IMG/VR virus record: IMGVR_UViG_3300035670_010555
Location: 105,855-169,854 of that record
DNA length: 64,000 nucleotides
Reading direction: 5' to 3' (one strand)
Source: a virus
The first letter of the stretch is position 1. Each line of letters opens with the position of its first letter. The notes under the pieces were generated by a model that did no database searches, was not told the origin of the DNA, and saw nothing but the letters and a program-made list of their open reading frames with translations. A program made the position numbers and the translations under genes. Below, one piece after another: positions 2,762 to 38,392 of this stretch.

Positions 2762-3478
2762 TTATTTTCCTAAAAAATCGTCTAATTTTCTCATTAAGTC
2801 AACTGACTTTCCAACGTAGTCGTTATTTTGTTTAGATTTTATTTCTTCCTCTAAATTTTCTTCATACTTACTTCTTTCGTCAGGGTTAGAAAATAAATAA
2901 GCTCCGGGTGTTGAAGGAGATGACACCAAATCAAAACATATTAATTCAAAATCATCTTGTACTTCATTTCTTTCCCCAACTTTTTTTAATGAACCAACTC
3001 CACGAGAAGAGATACCTAATGTTACTCCTTGTCTCATTAAGTTCGCCGCTTGGTCTCCTTTGGTTGAAACGATTCCTCTTTCGTGAAACCCTGGAGATGT
3101 CAATAATTTGAGTTTTCCCATTAGTATATTTTTATCCCACCATATGTCTGTGATGATGTGGGATACTCTATCTAAGTCTATTAACGATGACTCAGGGTGG
3201 TTTAATTCTGATGTGGATAACCCTTTAGAAATTGCTTGCTTATATCTTTCAGATTCCCTTTTCAAAATCCTTTCAGGATACGTTCTACCATTTCTATTTG
3301 GTGTGTCGTATTTTTGAAGAACCGCATAAAATTCAAATGGATTTCTATAATCTAAATTGGCGGCTTCTTTCAGAACATCAATATTATGAGTGTCTTTGGG
3401 AGAAACCCAACCTGCATCCATTTCAATCAATATACCATGACCAAGCTCGCTCGCTTCTAAAATTCTTAAATTTTTCAT
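2762..3478 (-). CDS. Prohead core protein protease (gp21-like)
   Basis: NRNGRTY, ELNHP, VSHII, GISSRGVGS, DLVSSPSTPGA motifs. Confidence 0.93.
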   Translation of the reverse strand: MKNLRILEASELGHGILIEMDAGWVSPKDTHNIDVLKEAANLDYRNPFEFYAVLQKYDTPNRNGRTYPERILKRESERYKQAISKGLSTSELNHPESSLIDLDRVSHIITDIWWDKNILMGKLKLLTSPGFHERGIVSTKGDQAANLMRQGVTLGISSRGVGSLKKVGERNEVQDDFELICFDLVSSPSTPGAYLFSNPDERSKYEENLEEEIKSKQNNDYVGKSVDLMRKLDDFLGK

Positions 3479-4951: not shown

Positions 4952-6802
4952 TTATGAATTTAATAACTTATCTAAGTGTTTTGAAATTTCTCCTAAAGAA
5001 TCTTGTGCTTGTCCCAAATTTATTACCTGAGATCCTTCAATTAAATTATTTTCCACTAATATGTTAAGGTCTTTTTTCTTTGATTCTGGTGTTACTTCAG
5101 TTGGTGGGGATTCTTCTGTTCCGCCTGCCGGTGGTAATTCTGGCTCTCCTCCAGGAATTTCTCCTCCACCACCGAATGATGGTGGTGGGCCCAATTCTTC
5201 TCCACCATCCGTAGTTGTCGCGGCTCCAGCCGTCGGAGTCGATCCTGTTTGACTACCATACAATTTGTCGATATTATCGAACAAACCTGTTTTGGTTATC
5301 ACAGTTGGAGTTGCTTTAAGTTCTTCACCAACAGCTCTTTCAATTCTTTGTTGTTGTAAGTCTAAACGAACTTCGTCATCAGACCATCCAAATATGTGTT
5401 TCTTAGCCCATGTAGATGAGGTCGCCTGAATTCCATTTCCTGGATCTGAAACTAAATCTTTATACAATAATACTTTTTCTTTCCAAACGTCAATCTTTAA
5501 CAAATCTGCTTGAGTTGATGGGTTTGTTAATCCGAGTGTAAAATTGGATAATTCATCTTCAAATCCTAATAAAAATAAATGTACGATAGCAATCTTATTC
5601 AGTTCCGCCAACATACTTTTTTGAATTCTATTTATTGTACGAGCAAATCTAATATCTTGTAACGCCAAGTTTTTACCATCACCTACCACTTCTTCAAAAC
5701 CCAAGAATGCCTTTGGTACTCGTAATGCAGTTAATAACTTTTTTTGAATATATTCAATATCGGCAATTTCAGACAAGTTAGTTGCTCCAGGTAGTGTGGT
5801 AATTGGATCTGGAGCTGCGGGGTCACGAACAGGAATAAAATAATCTTGGTCAACAGCCATTTGGTTGAATCTCATATCAACATTACCTGTCTTACTATCC
5901 ACTACTTGTTCTCTTTTGAACTTGTTTGCAACTCGTTGTACATATGCTTCAACATCGTCATCATTCATGTTTCCAACAAACACTTTGAACATTCTTCTTT
6001 CGGGAGCTCTTGACGTACGGTAAATCAACATCGCATCTTCGGAAAGTAAAAGTTGTTTCCAAATACGTCTAGCTTTTTCCAACATAGATGTTCCGTATGG
6101 TAGTTTTCTGTCATCACCTAATAATCTGAAGTGAGCAATTTCCCATGACTGAAATTCCATATTTTTATTCTTCCAAGTGAAGTGTAATGCTTTTCTGTCT
6201 TTATCAACTTCATTTTTAACATCAACAGATATTTTACCACTAGCACCAACTTCATGTCGTTCAATTTCTATGGTCGGTAATTGTTGGCATCCAACAATTC
6301 CTTTCTCAGGGTCTAATTTAAGATACACAAAATTGTCACCATATTTACAGGTGTTCCGTGTCCACATTGGAAGGTTGGTATTAACATCTAAAGCATTGTT
6401 GAACAAATCCGCTAATACCCCTTTTATTCTTTTTGATTCAGAATAAATTTGTAGAATAAATCCATCTTCATTTGTTGTTGTGGATTCTTCGGCATAAATG
6501 TCTAACGCGGCTGAAATCTCAGGAGTATATTCCATCGACTCATAATCGTATTGTGCGGACAACCTTGTTGGTTCATAGTAAATTGCCTGTGAATAAAGGT
6601 TGTTTTCTACCTTTGACCATTGATTGGTAAGGTAATATGTTTGTTGTGCTTGGAGTTTTTCTTTTTCGTATTCTTCTCTACTTTTGGTTCGCAGAAGTTC
6701 CTTTTTATCAAACTTGAATGTCGGATAGTCTTGATTGAGAAGTGAATTAGGTCCAAATGTTTGTGACAATCGTTGCCAAACTGTCATATTTTGTTCTGCC
6801 AT
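4952..6802 (-). CDS. Portal protein (gp20-like)
   Basis: EDAMLIYRTSRAPERRMFKVFVGN, DYFIPVR, ITTLPG, DIEYIQKKL..ALRVP, DIRFARTINRIQ. Confidence 0.95.
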   Translation of the reverse strand: MAEQNMTVWQRLSQTFGPNSLLNQDYPTFKFDKKELLRTKSREEYEKEKLQAQQTYYLTNQWSKVENNLYSQAIYYEPTRLSAQYDYESMEYTPEISAALDIYAEESTTTNEDGFILQIYSESKRIKGVLADLFNNALDVNTNLPMWTRNTCKYGDNFVYLKLDPEKGIVGCQQLPTIEIERHEVGASGKISVDVKNEVDKDRKALHFTWKNKNMEFQSWEIAHFRLLGDDRKLPYGTSMLEKARRIWKQLLLSEDAMLIYRTSRAPERRMFKVFVGNMNDDDVEAYVQRVANKFKREQVVDSKTGNVDMRFNQMAVDQDYFIPVRDPAAPDPITTLPGATNLSEIADIEYIQKKLLTALRVPKAFLGFEEVVGDGKNLALQDIRFARTINRIQKSMLAELNKIAIVHLFLLGFEDELSNFTLGLTNPSTQADLLKIDVWKEKVLLYKDLVSDPGNGIQATSSTWAKKHIFGWSDDEVRLDLQQQRIERAVGEELKATPTVITKTGLFDNIDKLYGSQTGSTPTAGAATTTDGGEELGPPPSFGGGGEIPGGEPELPPAGGTEESPPTEVTPESKKKDLNILVENNLIEGSQVINLGQAQDSLGEISKHLDKLLNS

Positions 6803-25713: not shown

Positions 25714-26421
25714 ATGAGTATCGAAAAAAATATTTTTAGAATTTTAGAAGAGATTAAGAAATCGGAAGAACTTATATCAGAAGCCATCATTTTGAGTGAA
25801 TCGAGCACCTTTTCACCACCCCTTAATAAACTTAAAGTGACCTCTGGTTTCGGCCCAAGATGGGGAAAACATCATGATGGAGTTGATTTAGCGGCAGTGG
25901 ACGAACCAGTCAAATCTCTCGCAGATGGAGTTGTAGTTACAACTCATCCCGATAAATATCCTTGTGGAGGAACCATTGTCATTCAACACTCAAATGGATA
26001 TACCACAGGTTTTTGTCATATGCAAAAAATAAACGTACAAGTTGGACAAAATGTAAAAAAGGGAGATATAATCGGAATCACTGGAGGTGGCAAAAATGAT
26101 CCAGGTAAAGGTAGAAGTGATGGGAAACACTTACATTTGACTATAAGAAAAGACGGAAAACCTTTAGACCCTATGAAATTCATAGATAAAGAAGGTGTAT
26201 TAGTTGGTACAGTACCTATATCACCAATATCTGGTACTGACGTATCAACTGATTCAACATCAAGTTCGGACAGTAAAGGTACCGCACCGGAATTTGGAAT
26301 TGCTGACTTTGATTTCTTAACGGGAAATATTAAAGGGAATATTGCCGATTTTGATTTTATTAAAGGAATTAAAGAACGAAAAATTTCGGAAAATATAGAA
26401 AGAATAAAAAAAATGTTATAA
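25714..26421 (+). CDS. M23 family peptidase
   Basis: TSGFGPR, HDGVD, FCHM, HLHL motifs. Confidence 0.88.
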   Translation: MSIEKNIFRILEEIKKSEELISEAIILSESSTFSPPLNKLKVTSGFGPRWGKHHDGVDLAAVDEPVKSLADGVVVTTHPDKYPCGGTIVIQHSNGYTTGFCHMQKINVQVGQNVKKGDIIGITGGGKNDPGKGRSDGKHLHLTIRKDGKPLDPMKFIDKEGVLVGTVPISPISGTDVSTDSTSSSDSKGTAPEFGIADFDFLTGNIKGNIADFDFIKGIKERKISENIERIKKML

Positions 26422-26466
26422 AAAAACCCACCTTATGGTGGGTTATTTTTTTTGGTTAAGTTGAGA

Positions 26467-26673
26467 TTACTTTACTGCCTCACCTTGAGCGGCTTCAACT
26501 TCCACGCCTTCAGCTCCACCACCAACTTCAACTGCTACTGTGTCAGCAACAACTGCAGTTGAATCTACAACTACCTCTGTGGAATCAGCTGCAACAGTTT
26601 CAACTGCTTTACCTCCACAAGATGCAAGAATCATGGTAGAAAGGATTGCGAATACTACTAAATTTTTTTTCAT
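26467..26673 (-). CDS. Small lipoprotein
   Basis: LASC lipobox; acidic Val/Ala-rich DST repeats. Confidence 0.75.
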   Translation of the reverse strand: MKKNLVVFAILSTMILASCGGKAVETVAADSTEVVVDSTAVVADTVAVEVGGGAEGVEVEAAQGEAVK

Positions 26674-27111: not shown

Positions 27112-27112
27112 G

Positions 27113-27186
27113 TTGGGATAGGTGGACTCGAACCACCAACCTTTCGCGTATCAGACGAATGCTCTAACCAATTGAGCTATATCCCA
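27113..27186 (-). tRNA. tRNA-Ile(GAT)
   Basis: Cloverleaf, loop CT-GAT-AC. Confidence 0.9.
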
Positions 27187-27202
27187 TTATTGTAAGTAAA
27201 AG

Positions 27203-27276
27203 AGCGGGTAGTGAGATTCGAACTCACAACTTCCGACTTGGAAGGACGGCACTCTAGCCAATTGAGCTATACCCGC
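27203..27276 (-). tRNA. tRNA-Gly(TCC)
   Basis: Cloverleaf, loop CT-TCC-AA. Confidence 0.9.
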
Positions 27277-27285
27277 TTTTTTGTG

Positions 27286-27436
27286 CTGTAAGAGGTGGAT
27301 TCGAACCACCACGAGGAGATTCAACAAATAACATATCGCCGGCCGGCTGGTGGTCTACCCCCTCATATTATTTGTCTATTTCTTAATCCCCACCCCCGAG
27401 ACAGGAGGGCTTGTCTGCCAATTTCAACACCTTACA
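27286..27436 (-). ncRNA. tRNA-like RNA with GTC anticodon loop and about 80-nt variable arm
   Basis: TGTAAGG/TCTTACA acceptor, class-II-like D arm, CCCTC-CTGTCTC-GGGGG arm, long paired insert, GGTGG-TTCGAAT-CCACC T arm. Confidence 0.65.
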
Positions 27437-27441
27437 AAATG

Positions 27442-27526
27442 CAGAGAGTATTGGATTCGAACCAATGCATCCCTTTCGAGATGACAGATTAGCAATCTGC
27501 TCCTTTAACCACTCAGGCAACTCTCT
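27442..27526 (-). tRNA. tRNA-Ser(GCT)
   Basis: Cloverleaf with long variable arm. Confidence 0.9.
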
Positions 27527-27579
27527 ATTAATGTTCCAAAACTCACTTTTTTTTAATGTTTTGGACCCTGAATAACTTG

Positions 27580-27650
27580 ATGTCTCATCAGGATTCGAAC
27601 CTGAAATAACTGAACCAAAATCAGTTGTGTTACCGTTACACCATGAGACA
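27580..27650 (-). tRNA. tRNA-Gln(TTG)
   Basis: Cloverleaf, loop TT-TTG-GT. Confidence 0.88.
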
Positions 27651-27731
27651 GTTTAGACAGACCTTAGGAGACGTATTATTCTCTTCATTATCCTTGTACT
27701 TTAACACCGTGGGAAGCGTGTGTCTGTCTTG

Positions 27732-27813
27732 TGGGAACGATAGGACTCGAACCTATGAACTCCGAAGAGAGGGGTTTTACAGACCCCGGCAATTGCCGCT
27801 ATGCGACGTTCCC
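27732..27813 (-). tRNA. tRNA-Tyr(GTA)
   Basis: Cloverleaf with variable arm, loop CT-GTA-AA. Confidence 0.9.
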
Positions 27814-27952
27814 AAAATAAGGAAAGGAGAAGATGGTTCCGTGGACATCTCCTTTTACGATTGGCATTACTACGATGATTCCAAACTCCAAATGTACCAC
27901 CTCCATCATCAGGTTAACATACATTCCTTCCCCAATCAACCTTTATAACTAG

Positions 27953-28023
27953 CACACCCACCAAGACTCGAACTTGGAACAACGGTTTTGGAGACCGGTA
28001 TGATGCCATTTCACCATAGATGC
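27953..28023 (-). tRNA. tRNA-Trp(CCA)
   Basis: Cloverleaf, loop CT-CCA-AA. Confidence 0.85.
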
Positions 28024-28440
28024 TTACTTGTTCAACAACCAAGATGACGATTGAATTTTATCTCCTAGTCCATCAATTAATTTAACCCCTAACCAATCAC
28101 AAATCGGTGTCTCAGGGATGCTATTATTGTTTTGGTCTCCACCATTAGCGAATAGGAATTCGTCGTCCCTATCCCCCAAAGAATGAATCAATTCGATTGT
28201 CTTACACACAGTTCGATCTGTGTCAACTGAAAGAAATACTCTGTCAACCATTTTCAGATTTTGGATGATTAACATTCTCTCATTCTCATCTTGGAATTCT
28301 TTACTACCCTTCAACTCCCTCTGTTTGTCATTGTTGACAATGACATAGAGTTTGTCACCATGTTCTTTGGACTTATTGAAATATTCAATATGTCCCTTAT
28401 GAACAGGATTAAAATATCCGCTTACAATTACAATTTTCAT
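28024..28440 (-). CDS. Cytidylyltransferase-like (HIGH) nucleotidyltransferase
   Basis: SGYFNPVHKGH, VNND, FANGGD, KIQSSS. Confidence 0.85.
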   Translation of the reverse strand: MKIVIVSGYFNPVHKGHIEYFNKSKEHGDKLYVIVNNDKQRELKGSKEFQDENERMLIIQNLKMVDRVFLSVDTDRTVCKTIELIHSLGDRDDEFLFANGGDQNNNSIPETPICDWLGVKLIDGLGDKIQSSSWLLNK

Positions 28441-28625
28441 TTCGTTTCGTAGGTTAAAGTTTCTAATTCCAATTCACTTTCATAGAAATATGGACAAGCC
28501 CACCTAGGTTTATCACATTTAAGTTTTACCATCGATCCTCTGTAAAATCCAACCGCTACGACTGTCGCCCATCCTGAACATCTTGTTTTAACTCTATCTC
28601 CAACTTTTAATTCACTAAATGTCAT
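28437..28625 (-). CDS. Hypothetical SH3-like protein
   Basis: LKVGDRVK start, 62 aa. Confidence 0.45.
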   Translation of the reverse strand: MTFSELKVGDRVKTRCSGWATVVAVGFYRGSMVKLKCDKPRWACPYFYESELELETLTYETK

Positions 28626-28923
28626 CTTCTACGGTGTTTAATTCAAAGTTACTAAATTTTAGTCCCCACATCAAAGAAATCATAGACATTTCTCTTTCAG
28701 CCATTTTAGCATACAAACGAAGTTCTTTCATAAGGTATTTTTTACCCCACTTTTTCCATTCTTCGTTTTGTTCCATAGTCATAGTCCAATCAGTATACCA
28801 ACTATCCTTACGGTCCTTGATATCGTCATAGGTCACAGGATGACCTGCAATTTCGAACATCTTGTTTATCATATCGATAACCATTTTTTGTTTTTTCTGT
28901 TCTTTAGATAATCTTGGTTTCAT
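28615..28923 (-). CDS. Hypothetical phage protein
   Basis: 102-aa ORF. Confidence 0.55.
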   Translation of the reverse strand: MKPRLSKEQKKQKMVIDMINKMFEIAGHPVTYDDIKDRKDSWYTDWTMTMEQNEEWKKWGKKYLMKELRLYAKMAEREMSMISLMWGLKFSNFELNTVEDDI

Positions 28924-28948
28924 AATTTTCTTTGTTTATTGGTTGATG

Positions 28949-29022
28949 AGGTCAGAATCGGATTCGAACCGATGGATACTTGTTTTGCAGACAAGCCCCT
29001 TAAGCCACTTGGGTATCTGACC
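28949..29022 (-). tRNA. tRNA-Cys(GCA)
   Basis: Cloverleaf, loop CT-GCA-AA. Confidence 0.9.
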
Positions 29023-29033
29023 ATTTATAATGT

Positions 29034-29100
29034 GTCAGGACGGGTTTCTAACCCGCTCCTCAGTTAACTACTGTGTGCTGCCATTTACACCACCTGACTA
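29034..29100 (-). ncRNA. Minimal/degenerate member of the AGTCAGG tRNA-like family
   Basis: Same GTCAGG/CCTGAC acceptor; short CAGT-AGTTA-ACTG arm; T loop TTAGAAA. Confidence 0.55.
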
Positions 29101-29103
29101 TTG

Positions 29104-29175
29104 TGTGACCGAAGAGAATCGAACTCTTACCTGAAGTGCCACAAACTTCCGCCCTCCCACTAGGCTACGGCCACC
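29104..29175 (-). tRNA. tRNA-His(GTG)
   Basis: Cloverleaf, loop TT-GTG-GC, G-1 encoded. Confidence 0.85.
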
Positions 29176-29400
29176 ATATAATAATTTAGATTTCTAAAAC
29201 TCATCCTCGAAAGGGTAAAGAAACTCCATCTTATTTGTTTTTTGCGTAGTCAGGACAGGATTCGAACCTGTATTTGTGGAGCACCATCTCCAACGTCTGA
29301 ATCGAACAGAACCAATCAATCCTCTACGGGTGGTACATCTGCAGCTGTACCACTTATTCAAGAACAGCGTCTAACCAATTCCGCCACCTGACTATCCTAA

Positions 29401-29607
29401 TTATTTACCTCCTCCGTCACCATCAAGATATATCAATCTTACTGTTTCACCACTACCTATATTATGAATAGTAAAGGTAGGATATGAACCGTCTTCATTT
29501 CTTTTGTTAATAGTGTCAGTTGGCCAAATTTCAAAACCATGTTCCCAACACAGATGGTCTAATTTATCAATAAACTCATCAGTTTCTTTACTTATTTCTT
29601 TTTCCAT
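29401..29607 (-). CDS. Small hypothetical protein (cassette)
   Basis: 68 aa, AAAAGTTATG start context. Confidence 0.6.
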   Translation of the reverse strand: MEKEISKETDEFIDKLDHLCWEHGFEIWPTDTINKRNEDGSYPTFTIHNIGSGETVRLIYLDGDGGGK

Positions 29608-29616
29608 AACTTTTAA

Positions 29617-29718
29617 TTACAAAAGTCTATACCAAATCTTAATTGTCATATCTCTTTGAGGGGATGGTTTTAGTTTTGACCATCTGTCAATCCATTCTTT
29701 AATTTCTTCTTTACTCAT
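29617..29718 (-). CDS. Small hypothetical protein (33 aa)
   Basis: MSKEEIKEWIDRWSKLKPSPQRDMTIKIWYRLL, same AAAAGTTATG context. Confidence 0.5.
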   Translation of the reverse strand: MSKEEIKEWIDRWSKLKPSPQRDMTIKIWYRLL

Positions 29719-29740
29719 AACTTTTAATTTTTTCACCTGA

Positions 29741-29878
29741 CTATCCTAATTTCCACCACCTACCACATTTTTGACATTCTTGTGGTCCATATGCTTTATG
29801 CATTTTATGTTTATCTAAAACAAAATCATGTACAAATAAACACCATACGTTTCCAAATTGTCTAATAATCCATTTCAT
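29741..29878 (-). CDS. Small Cys/His protein (45 aa)
   Basis: C.FVH...C.KC; its TAG stop is the TAG of a TAGTCAGGTG repeat fragment. Confidence 0.5.
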   Translation of the reverse strand: MKWIIRQFGNVWCLFVHDFVLDKHKMHKAYGPQECQKCGRWWKLG

Positions 29879-29889
29879 ATATTTTTTAA

Positions 29890-30054
29890 TTAAAATATAA
29901 TACTTAATAAATGACCTATAAAAATACCTGTTGCTAAGGCTGATAACGATAGACTTACAAGTGTTTTTTTAGATAAATCTTTAATAAATGATGGTAGTAT
30001 CCAGCTTGATATTAATACTAACCATCCCACAATTACAGCAATTTCTATTTCCAT
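29890..30054 (-). CDS. Small 2-TM membrane protein (54 aa)
   Basis: Manual translation; AAAAGTTATG context. Confidence 0.55.
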   Translation of the reverse strand: MEIEIAVIVGWLVLISSWILPSFIKDLSKKTLVSLSLSALATGIFIGHLLSIIF

Positions 30055-30151
30055 AACTTTTATTTTTAGTTGTAGTCAGGACAGGATTCGAACCTGTGAT
30101 AGACGCTCCTTAGAGTCCGCTATCATGGCAACCAATTCCGCCACCTGACTA

Positions 30152-30464
30152 TGTTGAGAATGAGAAGTCCTCTGTGTTGTAGTGCACGATTATGTTTTCC
30201 ATAATTCAAGTAATGTCACTCATCTTTATGTCTCCTTTCTCAAGGGTACAACACATTTGTAGTCAGGACAGGATTCGAACCTGTACGAAGAGTATGTGTG
30301 TCTCTTCTCCTATGGGTTTACCTCAAGGGTTTCCACCTGCCATCGCACGTTGTAGCGTCTACCATTCCGCCACCTGACTATGTTGAGGATGAGAAGTCCT
30401 CTGTGTTGTAGAGTTTGTTTACTCTCTTATATGATAGCATTTCTTTCTCAAGGAAACAACACGT
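30152..30464 (-). ncRNA. Two copies of a putative kissing-loop RNA (30152-30256, 30381-30464)
   Basis: GTGTTGT..CCTTGAGAAAG[variable]CTACAACACAGAGGACTTCTCATYCTCAACA shared by both copies. Confidence 0.6.
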
Positions 30465-30765
30465 TGTAATGGAGTGGGTCTATTCCCCACAGTCAACAGA
30501 ACTTAAAACTTACCTACGAGAGAGAGGTATTCTGTATGATCGTTCCCATTGCCTAAACAGTGTCTAGTATGCCTTCGGTTGTCTCTCGTGTCAGTAGTCA
30601 GGACAGGATTCGAACCTGTATGCACTATTAAGGTAATGCTTTTGTATGTTTTTCAGTGTCCACTACAAGTTTCCTTAATTTTGTAGTAACTACTTTCATC
30701 CTCACATAACGTCTACCATTCCGCCACCTGACTAAATTACTTGTTTTCGATTATCAAGTTGATAG

Positions 30766-31089
30766 TTACAATTCGTAACGAGCCAATGCTGCGTCTGTGA
30801 TTTCCTTTGCTTTTTTACAAATCAACACATCTTCTGAATAAATATGATAAATTGAATCAGCTCCCAATTCGCTGAGTAATTGTGTTAACGCAACTGCGTA
30901 TAATTCAATATCGTCAGCCGTGTGAGACGAAGCAACTTCGCTTCTTGACATATTTCCGAAAACTTTAGAATGAGATCGTAAGTAATCGTGATGATATGTA
31001 TATGGAACTCGGCTTTTGCTATGTGGCAATTTATCAATTACTTCTAGAAACCGTTGAGGCAATGTACTATCTTCTTCTTTTCTGAACAT
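30766..31089 (-). CDS. Hypothetical protein
   Basis: 107-aa ORF between a repeat fragment and a full element. Confidence 0.55.
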   Translation of the reverse strand: MFRKEEDSTLPQRFLEVIDKLPHSKSRVPYTYHHDYLRSHSKVFGNMSRSEVASSHTADDIELYAVALTQLLSELGADSIYHIYSEDVLICKKAKEITDAALARYEL

Positions 31090-31133
31090 ATTTTCCCCTA
31101 TTTAGATATTACTATTTCACCACCTGACTATTT

Positions 31134-31343
31134 TTATTTTTCCAAAACGTACTTCATCATCTCTTGCATCTTGATAATCAAAAGTTCCATTTCATCCTTA
31201 TTAAGATACAACCTACCGTTTAATGTTTTATCATCCAACTCTTTGACTTCAACGATGATACCACCGAAACACTCAGTTGGATAAATTTCAACATTCTGTT
31301 CTTCGGTCGCAATAACTGTTTTGTTCCAAACTTTGTTTTTCAT
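31134..31343 (-). CDS. Hypothetical protein
   Basis: 69-aa ORF. Confidence 0.55.
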   Translation of the reverse strand: MKNKVWNKTVIATEEQNVEIYPTECFGGIIVEVKELDDKTLNGRLYLNKDEMELLIIKMQEMMKYVLEK

Positions 31344-31346
31344 AAC

Positions 31347-31616
31347 TTATTTATTTTTGAATTGTTCAAACCATTGTTCTAATGTTATCTTCTTTCCTGC
31401 TAACAAATCTTCTGTATGCTTATAAAGTATATTTAATACTTCTTCCTCGCTATACATTTTTTCTTGTTGTAATCTAGCAATGTGAATAAACATTGATTTT
31501 ATCCAAGTTTTTTCGTGAGGCTGTATTGTTTTTGCTTCTAATAACTCTAAGCTATAATTTTCAGCTGCTTCCTCAAGCTTGAATGCTTGTTCGTAAGGAA
31601 TAAATTCGGTTTTCAT
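31347..31616 (-). CDS. Hypothetical phage protein
   Basis: EFIPYEQA / LEEAAE / QEKMYSEEEV / WFEQFK. Confidence 0.6.
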   Translation of the reverse strand: MKTEFIPYEQAFKLEEAAENYSLELLEAKTIQPHEKTWIKSMFIHIARLQQEKMYSEEEVLNILYKHTEDLLAGKKITLEQWFEQFKNK

Positions 31617-31720
31617 TTCTCTTTACAGTTTAAGTTTCTCTCTTATTACTCCACTAATGTCCGAAAAAGATTTTACATCCACAAGGGATTTGTAAAATAT
31701 TTTATTTTTTTTTTTGGTAG

Positions 31721-31794
31721 TGACCCCGCCGAGATTCGAACTCGGGACTCCTTCATTAAAAGTGAAGTGCTCTAGCCAACTGAGCTACGAAGTC
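31721..31794 (-). tRNA. tRNA-Lys(TTT)
   Basis: Cloverleaf, loop CT-TTT-AA. Confidence 0.92.
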
Positions 31795-32780
31795 ATTTGT
31801 AGTCAGGACAGGATTCGAACCTGTATGTAGATTTTGTATGTACTTTTGGCTTTGAAATCATCTACTAATTTCTGTACCCTAGAATACATCGGCTGCACAG
31901 CACCATATACATACTCTCACAGCGTCTACCAATTTCGCCACCTGACTATTTTTGAAAAGATATGTGGTGTCGCTCCACTGCCTCTACAACCTAAGAATTT
32001 CGCTCAGAATAATTCCGTACTAATTCAAATTGCTAACAACACTTTTTTGAGTGTATATCCTTGTAGTCAGGACAGGATTCGAACCTGTATTGATTTACTT
32101 ATTGATTGGGTGTCAACTTAATGTCTTCCAATCAATCATCAATCTACCATTAGCTTTCGCCACCTGACTATATTAGGTTAGAGGCTGTTAACCATAAGGT
32201 CGTACGAAACATCACTTGTACTTCGTGTCAGGGAATCTCCCATACCTCTAAAGTAGTCAGGACAGGATTCGAACCTGTAATATGAAGTTATTCCCGATTA
32301 CCCTCGTTATTACCTTCATCCCTATTGAGTGGAGGGATTATATTTGACACCAATTTCGCCAACTGACTAATGTTTTTAGTTACTTTATCAACACTTCTCC
32401 AAGAACCACCTCGGCCAGTTTATATCAATTTCACTTAGGTTACGTCATGATTCTGCTGGTTAAGCGTCCTCAATCTAAACCTGTTTGTAGCCAGGACAGG
32501 TACTGCCCCTGTTGCTTGGTCTTTTGTTCACAGAGTGTCACTTATGATACTCTGTCAAACGTCACCCACGAGTTACTTTTACTCTACCTGACTATACTGT
32601 AATACCGTTTCTCTGGTTTTTACTTATGGTTTGTTCCCCATAACCTGTTGACGTGCACATCAGAGCAAGGACCTGTACAGTGTCTATCGAGCCGTTCCTC
32701 ACCTTCCAATTATGGTTGCGACCCATTCGGAAGTCGATAGTCCTTTCAGTGAAGCATTATCACCTTCTGTAGATATTACA

Positions 32781-32857
32781 TGGTACTCCGTACGGGGCTC
32801 GAACCCGTAAGCTCTCCCGTGAAAGGGGAGTGTCCTAACCAATTAGACGAACGGAGC
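32781..32857 (-). tRNA. tRNA-Glu(TTC)
   Basis: Cloverleaf, CCA encoded. Confidence 0.92.
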
Positions 32858-32862
32858 ATGTG

Positions 32863-32934
32863 AGCAGGTATCCGGATTCGAACCGAAATCTCCGGTTTGG
32901 AAGACCAGATCACTAACCGTTGTGCTATACCTGC
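32863..32934 (-). tRNA. tRNA-Gly(TCC), second copy
   Basis: Cloverleaf, loop CT-TCC-AA. Confidence 0.85.
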
Positions 32935-32950
32935 GGTTTAATCAACTATT

Positions 32951-33025
32951 TGGAGGGGAGGGAGAATTACGATATCTCGACCTATTCATTAACAGTGAAT
33001 TGCTCTACCTCTGAGCTACCTCCCC
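32951..33025 (-). tRNA. tRNA-Asn(GTT), atypical T loop
   Basis: Canonical D and anticodon arms, loop CT-GTT-AA; T loop ATCGTAA; CCA encoded. Confidence 0.75.
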
Positions 33026-33035
33026 TTCTGTCTTA

Positions 33036-33043
33036 CAAAGATA
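33036..33043 (-). promoter_or_regulatory. Bacteroidota -7 promoter element TATCTTTG upstream of tRNA-Asn
   Basis: TAnnTTTG with TTTG about 18 nt upstream. Confidence 0.6.
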
Positions 33044-33075
33044 CTACAATATTTCAAAGAACAAAAACATGTCAT

Positions 33076-33111
33076 AAAAAAACCCCAAACTTTTTTTAAG
33101 AGTTCGGGGTC
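33076..33111 (-). terminator. Attenuator terminator (3:4 hairpin)
   Basis: GACCCCGAACT-loop-AGTTTGGGGTT followed by T-tract. Confidence 0.85.
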
Positions 33112-33148
33112 TAAAAATTTAATTTAACTTAAATTAAAAAATTACTTT

Positions 33149-33238
33149 CTATGACATCCGAACTACAGGGCAAATACCTTCATACCAACATTTCTCTTGT
33201 TGACTATTACTGTTAATATGTTGACCTGTAGTTCTCAT
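33149..33238 (-). CDS. 29-aa leader peptide of putative tRNA-operon attenuator
   Basis: MRTTGQHINSNSQQEKCWYEGICPVVRMS*; overlaps hairpin segments 1 and 2. Confidence 0.75.
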   Translation of the reverse strand: MRTTGQHINSNSQQEKCWYEGICPVVRMS

Positions 33239-33296
33239 TGTATTAATAATTACTTCTAATGTATGAAATATTTTTATTTTGTCAAATGTTTTTTTG

Positions 33297-36473: not shown

Positions 36474-36959
36474 ATGAGTACGGTATTAGTTTTGAATTCT
36501 GATTACACTCCTCTGAACGTAACAAGTGTTCAGAGAGGATTTGTATTGGTTACTAAAGGAAAGGCGGAAGTGTTAAGGTCGGATGAAAATCCGATTGTGA
36601 CAGGTTACAAGACGTTTATACGACCCGTTATCATACGACTATTAAAATATATTAGGCATAGAACAAGATTGAACAAACCCAACCGTAGTCGCATTTATAA
36701 AAGGGACGGATATGAGTGTGTTTATTGTGGGTCGAAAAAGAATCTAACCTTAGACCACGTTATACCCAAATCAAGAGGAGGTTCGAATGAATGGACAAAC
36801 TTGGTTACTTGTTGTTCAAAGTGTAATCGAGATAAGGACAACAAAACTCCTGATGAAGCAAAGATGCCAATGAAGAAGCCGGCATACGAACCACCAATAA
36901 TGTATGATGATGTGGCGTTATTAAATGTTTGGACAGATTTCCAAAAATATTTTGTATAA
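36474..36959 (+). CDS. HNH endonuclease
   Basis: RD...C.YCG....LTLDHVIPKSRGG...W.NLV..C..CN. Confidence 0.9.
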   Translation: MSTVLVLNSDYTPLNVTSVQRGFVLVTKGKAEVLRSDENPIVTGYKTFIRPVIIRLLKYIRHRTRLNKPNRSRIYKRDGYECVYCGSKKNLTLDHVIPKSRGGSNEWTNLVTCCSKCNRDKDNKTPDEAKMPMKKPAYEPPIMYDDVALLNVWTDFQKYFV

Positions 36960-37711: not shown

Positions 37712-38392
37712 ATGAACATCGGACAAGAATTTCAAAACTATTACGTAAATCACTTGGGAAAGGGATCGTTGGATCTTCACAACTTCTCGAATCAAATTCA
37801 ATCATCTATGACTCCATATATTTTAGAGGAAAGAGAAATGAGAGCAACTCAGATTGATATTTTTTCGAGATTAATGAGAGACAGAATTATTTGGGTCGCA
37901 GGACCTGTAGATGATAGAATGTCAACTATCGTACAGGCACAATTAATGTTTATGGATAATGTTGATAAAACTGACATCACAATGCATATTGACAGTCCAG
38001 GTGGAAGTGTAAAATCAGGACTTTCTATGGTTGATGTAATGAACTACATTGCTTGTGATATTAGAACTGTGAACACAGGTATGGCAGCTTCTATGGGTTC
38101 TGTGTTGTTGGGAGCTGGAACTAAAGGGAAAAGAAGTTCTTTGAGATTTTCGAGAACAATGTTACACCAATCTTCTGGTGGAGCTGTGGGTAACATTCAA
38201 GATGCGGAAATCACAATGAGAGAATGGGCAAAATTGAATGATATTCTATTTGGTCTTCTTGGTGAGTTCTGTAGTAAAGACCCTGAACAAGTTAAGTTGG
38301 ATGCTAGTAGAGATTTGTGGTTGGATAGTGAACAAGCTCTTGAATATGGTATTATTGACGAGATTGTTAAAACGAAAAAGAGGGGTAAATAA
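37712..38392 (+). CDS. clpP: ClpP protease subunit
   Basis: DIFSRL, IDSPGG, GMAASMG (Ser), MLHQ (His), RDLW, YGIID; TAACTTTG promoter at 37687. Confidence 0.95.
   Translation: MNIGQEFQNYYVNHLGKGSLDLHNFSNQIQSSMTPYILEEREMRATQIDIFSRLMRDRIIWVAGPVDDRMSTIVQAQLMFMDNVDKTDITMHIDSPGGSVKSGLSMVDVMNYIACDIRTVNTGMAASMGSVLLGAGTKGKRSSLRFSRTMLHQSSGGAVGNIQDAEITMREWAKLNDILFGLLGEFCSKDPEQVKLDASRDLWLDSEQALEYGIIDEIVKTKKRGK

Follow-up and report, generated by a model that had tools for sequence, protein, structure and literature searches.

Multivalent leader-peptide attenuators are known from the leader of ilvGMEDA, which carries Ile, Leu and Val codons, and from the thr leader (Thr and Ile codons); trpL, hisL, leuL and pheL are further attenuator leaders. 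The pheST attenuator controls a synthetase, and T-box RNAs bind uncharged tRNA directly via one specifier codon, with no ribosome involved. A general description of the leader-peptide attenuators of amino-acid operons has been given (PMC1183508), and leader-peptide attenuation has been reported as likely in Flavobacterium (PMC9723704). Codon compensation and escape from tRNA-targeting defences are among the reasons proposed for phage tRNA genes (PMC10264068). Their purpose and control have been debated for decades, and we found no description of leader-peptide attenuation of tRNA genes in the literature.

We analysed an element in front of a phage tRNA block that is probably a ribosome-mediated (leader-peptide) transcription attenuator, raising tRNA transcription when the codons of its leader are read slowly. 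A first-pass annotation of the same DNA had proposed an attenuator here, and this interpretation is supported by the conserved geometry of the element and by paralogous leaders whose codons match their own tRNA blocks.

The element and its transcription signals

The window, by which we mean the whole 64,000-nt stretch of DNA that was analysed, is part of a 170-kb IMG/VR virus record estimated to be 56% complete. It belongs to a freshwater giant phage whose relatives come from lakes; one relative (G001, contig of L002) has a complete 326-kb genome. ARAGORN called 17 tRNAs in the window, and 12 of these, of 11 amino-acid types, lie downstream of the leader element. On the minus strand the order is tRNA-Arg(UCU), promoter P1, a 29-codon ORF, an AT-rich hairpin, a terminator, promoter P2 and tRNA-Asn. 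No leader was found in the window before tRNA-Met or tRNA-Leu. The transcription signals and genes are as follows:

33256-33286, minus strand: promoter P1, with -33 TTTG (33286-33283), a 19-nt spacer and the -7 box TACATTAG (33263-33256)
33149-33238, minus strand: leader ORF, 29 codons and TAG, of which codons 5-23 are the proposed control codons
33036-33065, minus strand: promoter P2, with TTTG, an 18-nt spacer and TATCTTTG
27112-33025, minus strand: tRNA block, in the order Asn, Gly, Glu, Lys, His, Cys, Trp, Tyr, Gln, Ser(GCU), Gly, Ile

The -7 box of Bacteroidota sigma-A promoters, TAnnTTTG, covers positions -12 to -5 (PMC9723704). P1 and P2 both match the Bacteroidota sigma-A consensus, and the same motif was found upstream of other genes of the phage. 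The start site expected for P1 is at ~33251, leaving a 5' UTR of ~13 nt before the ORF, which has its own start codon. In relatives the -7 box of P1 is a perfect TAnnTTTG, and both its -33 and -7 boxes are kept while the spacer diverges. Transcripts from P2 are expected to start ~6 nt ahead of tRNA-Asn. A TATCTTTG promoter past the terminator had been raised in the first-pass annotation as a caveat, and it proved to be real: it is conserved among relatives, being kept in all groups with variation at the 'nn' positions of the box. The genes controlled by an attenuator should have no independent promoter in front of them, and here they do have one, P2 at 33065-33036. As P2 follows the terminator, the tRNAs can be transcribed without read-through, and given P2 the switch in the window can only raise basal tRNA transcription and cannot gate it.

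The tRNA block also contains small ORFs and tRNA-like RNAs between the tRNA genes. A match to the Rfam freshwater-1 RNA motif (32618-32679, minus strand; 70 bits against a gathering score of 72) sits immediately after tRNA-Glu, within the block. A repeat of 27-30 nt is present in seven copies at 29246-32279 (minus strand), and some of its copies are the 3' ends of long-insert tRNA-like Rfam matches (30073-30150, 30260-30379 and 30595-30733) that have no ARAGORN call. ORFs 36474-36959, 37712-38392 and 25714-26421, all on the plus strand, resemble by eye an HNH endonuclease, a ClpP-type protease and an M23 peptidase, respectively.

Alternative RNA structures

An attenuator geometry with mutually exclusive helices 1:2, 2:3 and 3:4 and a terminal U-tract, as described in the first-pass annotation, was found on the minus strand. 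Its parts are:

33225-33234, minus strand: segment 1 (GAACUACAGG), the 5' arm of helix 1:2, beginning 4 nt past the A of the ATG
33186-33202, minus strand: apical hairpin of the 1:2 stem (CAACA / UGUUG), encoding invariant Gln-Gln and Cys-Trp codons
33158-33169, minus strand: segment 2, of which 33169-33160 pairs with segment 1 and 33164-33158 (AGUUCGG) alternatively with segment 3
33115-33135, minus strand: AT-rich hairpin within the 2:3 loop, three of its pairs changed on both sides
33074-33111, minus strand: intrinsic terminator, made of segment 3 (33111-33101), a loop, segment 4 (33091-33081) and seven U

The minimum-energy fold of 33260-33060 (-53 kcal/mol, z = -5.75) consists of helix 1:2 around most of the ORF, the AT hairpin and the terminator. 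In helix 1:2 (33225-33234 paired to 33160-33169) we found compensatory changes from G-C to A-U and U-A. The apical hairpin is 100% paired in 16 sequences, with a variable loop sequence, and the hairpin in the 2:3 loop is retained by four different sequences. The ORF stop codon lies 6 nt downstream of segment 2. Between the leader ORF and the tRNAs, the terminator forms an 11-bp GC-rich stem followed by U7; the stem is 99% paired, with compensatory changes from C-G to U-A and from G.U to G-C. Taken together, helices 1:2, apical and 3:4 were 95.5% paired in the 16 sequences, compared with 29-48% in slid controls.

Compensatory changes, which had been suggested as a check on the helices, were thus found for 1:2, apical and 3:4 (three pairs changed on both sides) but were thin for 2:3. 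Helix 2:3 is 99.1% paired and one of its positions shows G-C, G.U and A-U; its covariation is weak, consisting of one double change that was matched by 66 of 500 shuffles. The AGUUCGG/CCGAACU pairing itself (33164-33158 with 33107-33101) was retained, but the GUC/GAC extension originally proposed for it is not conserved. Folding with segment 1 masked gave helix 2:3 when segment 4 was absent, and under these settings 2:3 was predicted in all variants. With segment 4 present, however, the terminator was still the minimum-energy structure. Since the terminator stays the equilibrium fold even with segment 1 masked, the switch must be kinetic. The start codon adjoins a hairpin of -16 to -24 kcal/mol; when folded, this hairpin at the ATG should hinder initiation in a host without Shine-Dalgarno pairing.

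We also observed a helix between the last leader codons and the sequence just past the terminator U-tract (33151-33157 with 33069-33075, minus strand), which could form only in read-through RNA. In L041 and L045 one of its pairs has changed in compensation from U-A to A-U; in group 3 of the relatives described below the helix is missing. RNAalifold also returned a long-range pairing between the P1 and P2 regions, which was rejected: it is AT-rich and lacks variation apart from two changes, both of which break pairs.

Conservation among relatives

Approximately 60 loci from lake viromes and metagenomes were gathered via a neighbouring DUF6878 protein and DNA patterns. The element was present in ~25 distinct variants, which form five sequence groups. 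Conservation of the ORF, on which the first-pass annotation had made its reading depend, was borne out: all ~25 variants of the five groups share the ATG, keep an open frame of 29-36 codons and have zero indels in the first 21 codons. The nucleotides of segment 2 are invariant and are read in two frames in different groups; group 1 and groups 2-5 are set apart by a one-base difference, and L011 shifts back. No synonymous variation was seen at the conserved codons; at the variable ones, substitutions are nearly all non-synonymous, and third positions are not in excess. The use of two frames in segment 2, together with this substitution pattern, indicates selection on the RNA and on the set of codons that it contains, not on the peptide product.

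Two loci, L052 and L055, carry at the same site a unit of unrelated sequence, again with a promoter, a small ORF, a terminator, the same P2 and tRNA-Glu. In L052 (6623-6754) this unit has an 11-bp 1:2 helix and a 2:3 helix (GAGAUGG/CCAUCUC) around a small hairpin; the terminator (3:4) reuses CCAUCUC and the stop codon lies within segment 2. An attenuator scheme rebuilt from different sequence is stronger evidence than the covariation in 2:3.

Searches outside this set were negative. The phage GenBank collection gave tRNA matches only and no relative of the element. The element is a single copy in its own genome, which rules out a repeat or mobile element. No Rfam model, including those of leaders (Trp_leader, His_leader, Leu_leader, Thr_leader, Bacteroid-trp and others), matched within 33026-33295 even at E ≤ 1; a borderline Trp_leader match (E = 1) is distant, at 26418-26506. 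A search of viral contigs with the group-2 pattern gave no match, and the pattern matches in L014 and L019 were discarded as chance occurrences inside unrelated coding sequence.

Leader codons and the downstream tRNAs

ORF 33238-33149 was recovered with the peptide and boundaries given in the first-pass annotation, and the amino acids encoded by its codons 5-23 are indeed the 11 served by the 12 downstream tRNAs and no others. All 19 central codons match the block by amino acid and 17 of the 19 by strict wobble. The sole non-cognate codons by strict wobble are two GGT, the phage tRNA-Gly being UCC, as the earlier caveat on the Gly codons had it. Such a composition is rare: 15 of 130,696 open 19-codon windows (six frames, 170-kb record) are built from these 11 amino acids alone, and the whole record has just two runs in which all 11 occur. 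Among 19-codon windows in long ORFs, none had 17 cognate codons. So exact a correspondence, 11 amino acids to 11 types of tRNA, is confined to this window. The proposed fit of the flanking M, R, T and S codons to tRNAs encoded upstream has no real meaning. Codons 1-4 (M, R, T, T) belong to the segment 1 scaffold, which is common to paralogous leaders whatever their tRNAs, and the last two (M, S) lie just beyond segment 2, where the frame varies between groups.

We then compared leaders and tRNA sets in the relatives. Co-variation of the two, predicted by the first-pass annotation, is absent in the closest relatives, where an identical leader precedes 7 or 12 tRNA genes, but is found across paralogous leaders (next section). 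In G001 the identical leader is followed only by Glu, Cys, Trp, Tyr, Gln, Ser and Ile tRNAs, and no tRNA for Asn, Gly, Lys or His was found anywhere in its complete genome. The G001 locus compared here lies at 166.6-173.2 kb, and the genome has only 12 canonical tRNAs compared with 17 in the window. In other group-1 contigs, too, tRNAs for Asn, Gly, His, Lys, Trp and Leu(UAG) have been gained or lost while the leader shows no matching change, and group 2 leaders have Phe, Lys and Met codons for which the tRNAs are missing downstream. The DNA flanking the element in the closest relatives is 7-15% diverged. With flanking divergence of just 7-15%, these tRNA gains and losses must be recent, and gain and loss among phages this close appears to be fast. 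Where the codons of group 1 leaders were replaced, 11 of the 12 distinct amino-acid changes stayed within the 11-amino-acid set of the window, compared with 54% expected (p = 0.007). Control codons cognate to the block are seen in the window and in the paralogues; among the closest relatives the match is not tracked. That the codon match is a coincidence, as the G001 leader without four of the tRNAs at 7-15% divergence could suggest, was overturned by the paralogous leaders.

Paralogous leaders before other tRNA blocks

Units with the same scaffold (ATG A(G/A)A AC.., segment 2 GUUC(A/G)G, segment 3 C(C/U)GAAC) were found in relatives, in front of other tRNA blocks. Their codon cassettes differ, each being written in the codons of its own block:

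L059:6345-6413 (unit 6345-6516): Leu/Arg leader of 22 codons, with Leu x8 (TTA x5, CTN x3), AGA x4 and CAA x1
L059:3265-3363 (unit 3265-3425): Pro-block leader, in which Asn, Thr, Asp, Pro, Gly and Leu account for 18 of the 20 central residues
L052:3087-3197 (unit 3015-3197): leader in which all 13 amino acids of its 13-tRNA block are present

The Leu/Arg leader precedes Leu(UAA), Gln(UUG), Arg(UCU) and Leu(UAG) tRNAs. The Pro-block leader precedes Pro, Asn, Asp, Gly and Thr, and its tRNA-Pro begins 8 nt past the U-tract with no promoter between. In this paralogue (L059:3265-3425) the controlled genes therefore have no independent promoter, and with tRNA-Pro only 8 nt after the U-tract the tRNAs of the block are reachable only by read-through. 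Comparison of L059 with L051 showed mostly synonymous changes in the control region of the Pro-block leader, including a Leu change from CTT to TTA. Every design places the stop codon within or beyond segment 2 but ahead of segment 3, with the control codons upstream of the stop.

To put numbers on the match we permuted codons among the leaders of one genome, which holds composition and genome constant. Own-block cognate codons were in excess in each genome: 45 of 83 in L060 (shuffled mean 23.6, p ≤ 1e-5), 35 of 58 in L052 (mean 24.9, p = 3e-4) and 31 of 66 in L051 (mean 22.2, p = 5.5e-3).

An ORF upstream of tRNA-Ile in L048, L051 and L060 was rejected as a leader; it resembles the end of a protein gene. 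At L046:2104-2361 ARAGORN called a tRNA-Ser(ACU) and a tRNA-Phe(AAA), whose anticodons are unusual and which may be tRNA-like elements.

Discussion

The analysis shows the anatomy of the element and its conservation, the pairings that it can alternate between, and the fit of each leader to the tRNA block behind it. From these we infer that the leader is translated, that ribosomes stall in it and that read-through is affected. Host RNA polymerase would initiate at P1, and a ribosome would initiate at the ATG a few bases ahead of segment 1. If the 29 codons are read fast, the ribosome at the stop codon would cover segment 2, or helix 1:2 would re-form; with segment 2 masked, segments 3 and 4 would fold as the terminator and the transcript would stop before the tRNAs. 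A stall at any codon whose tRNA is scarce would hold segment 1 and leave segment 2 free to pair with segment 3, so that no terminator would form and transcription would enter the tRNA genes. In the window, P2 would provide a basal supply of tRNA to which read-through adds more. The tRNAs behind the switch read these same control codons and would therefore regulate their own synthesis by feedback; since the tRNAs produced would relieve the stall, the loop would limit itself.

Other explanations of the locus were weighed against the same evidence. P1 and the terminator make a complete transcription unit, from which P2 frees the tRNAs, and the element could be a stand-alone small RNA gene, with P1 driving a structured RNA of ~175 nt that acts in trans or is just stable, and with the ORF and helix 2:3 incidental. 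Selection on nucleotides, not on the peptide, is in line with this, as are the second frame, which is likewise mostly open in groups 1 and 2, the other non-coding RNAs in the region, and the pairing of the ORF end with sequence past the U-tract, with its one compensatory change. We nevertheless regard a small RNA gene as improbable, as it leaves unexplained the invariant ATG, the in-frame codon match of each paralogous unit to its own block, the TTA and AGA runs before Leu and Arg tRNAs, the predominance of synonymous substitutions in the Pro-block control region, and a paralogue terminator that abuts a tRNA without a promoter.

The ORF could instead be the gene for a functional 29-residue peptide, given that it is open with an invariant ATG in all variants and that two Cys and a Trp-Tyr stretch are conserved. 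This is highly improbable. The C-terminal third is read in two frames over fixed nucleotides, conserved residues are free of synonymous changes, and nearly all changes at variable codons are non-synonymous and show no third-position excess. The two frames of segment 2 and these substitutions were the grounds for rejecting a micropeptide. As an attenuator, the element could also work as a general sensor of translation (of ribosome availability or of transcription-translation coupling), the codon match being a by-product of AT-rich codon bias and common descent. The window leader indeed has no single-codon runs and is unchanged in relatives without four of the tRNAs, and the whole ORF is unexceptional when scored against the full set of 17 phage tRNAs, with 22 of 29 codons cognate, a level attained by 6-10% of comparable windows. 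A general sensor is unlikely in our judgement, as leaders of the same genome differ sharply in codons and match their own blocks and not each other's, and as group 1 replacements remain in the amino-acid set of the block.

If the attenuator reading is true, each leader would be a direct feedback on tRNA supply that gauges the decoding speed of exactly the codons served by its block, and an old bacterial mechanism would have been applied to a new class of genes. Each leader would then declare the codons that the phage treats as limiting in its host, making the question of what phage tRNA genes are for testable. The paralogous units, whose codon cassettes are swapped, amount to a natural experiment, and they could be ready-made codon-specific sensors of translation speed. 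We tentatively go one step further, to a wider picture that is possible though doubtful: phage tRNA islands may be codon-addressed, self-tuning sub-operons whose leaders serve as OR-gates for the loss of any tRNA, whether to anticodon nucleases, other tRNA-depleting defences or starvation, and so switch on replacements as an inducible counter-defence. Within this picture, the counter-defence role is speculation.

As far as we could find, attenuation of tRNA genes is an unpublished form of control. The element resembles the ilv and thr attenuators in having a promoter, a short ORF of control codons, exclusive helices 1:2, 2:3 and 3:4 and an intrinsic terminator, in the placing of its stop codon such that a finishing ribosome masks segment 2, and in having several kinds of codon per leader. 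Unlike them, it is found in a phage, has a second promoter after the terminator in the window, and has a start codon that abuts helix 1:2. Its leader has up to 11 kinds of codon, mostly used once or twice each and not in runs, and it controls tRNAs, the very molecules sensed, where ilv and thr control biosynthetic enzymes. It also resembles the pheST (pheM) attenuator and the T-box leaders of aminoacyl-tRNA synthetase genes, in which the decoding apparatus is likewise controlled by the state of the cognate tRNA; unlike a T-box, the phage leader presents many in-frame codons between its ATG and its stop.
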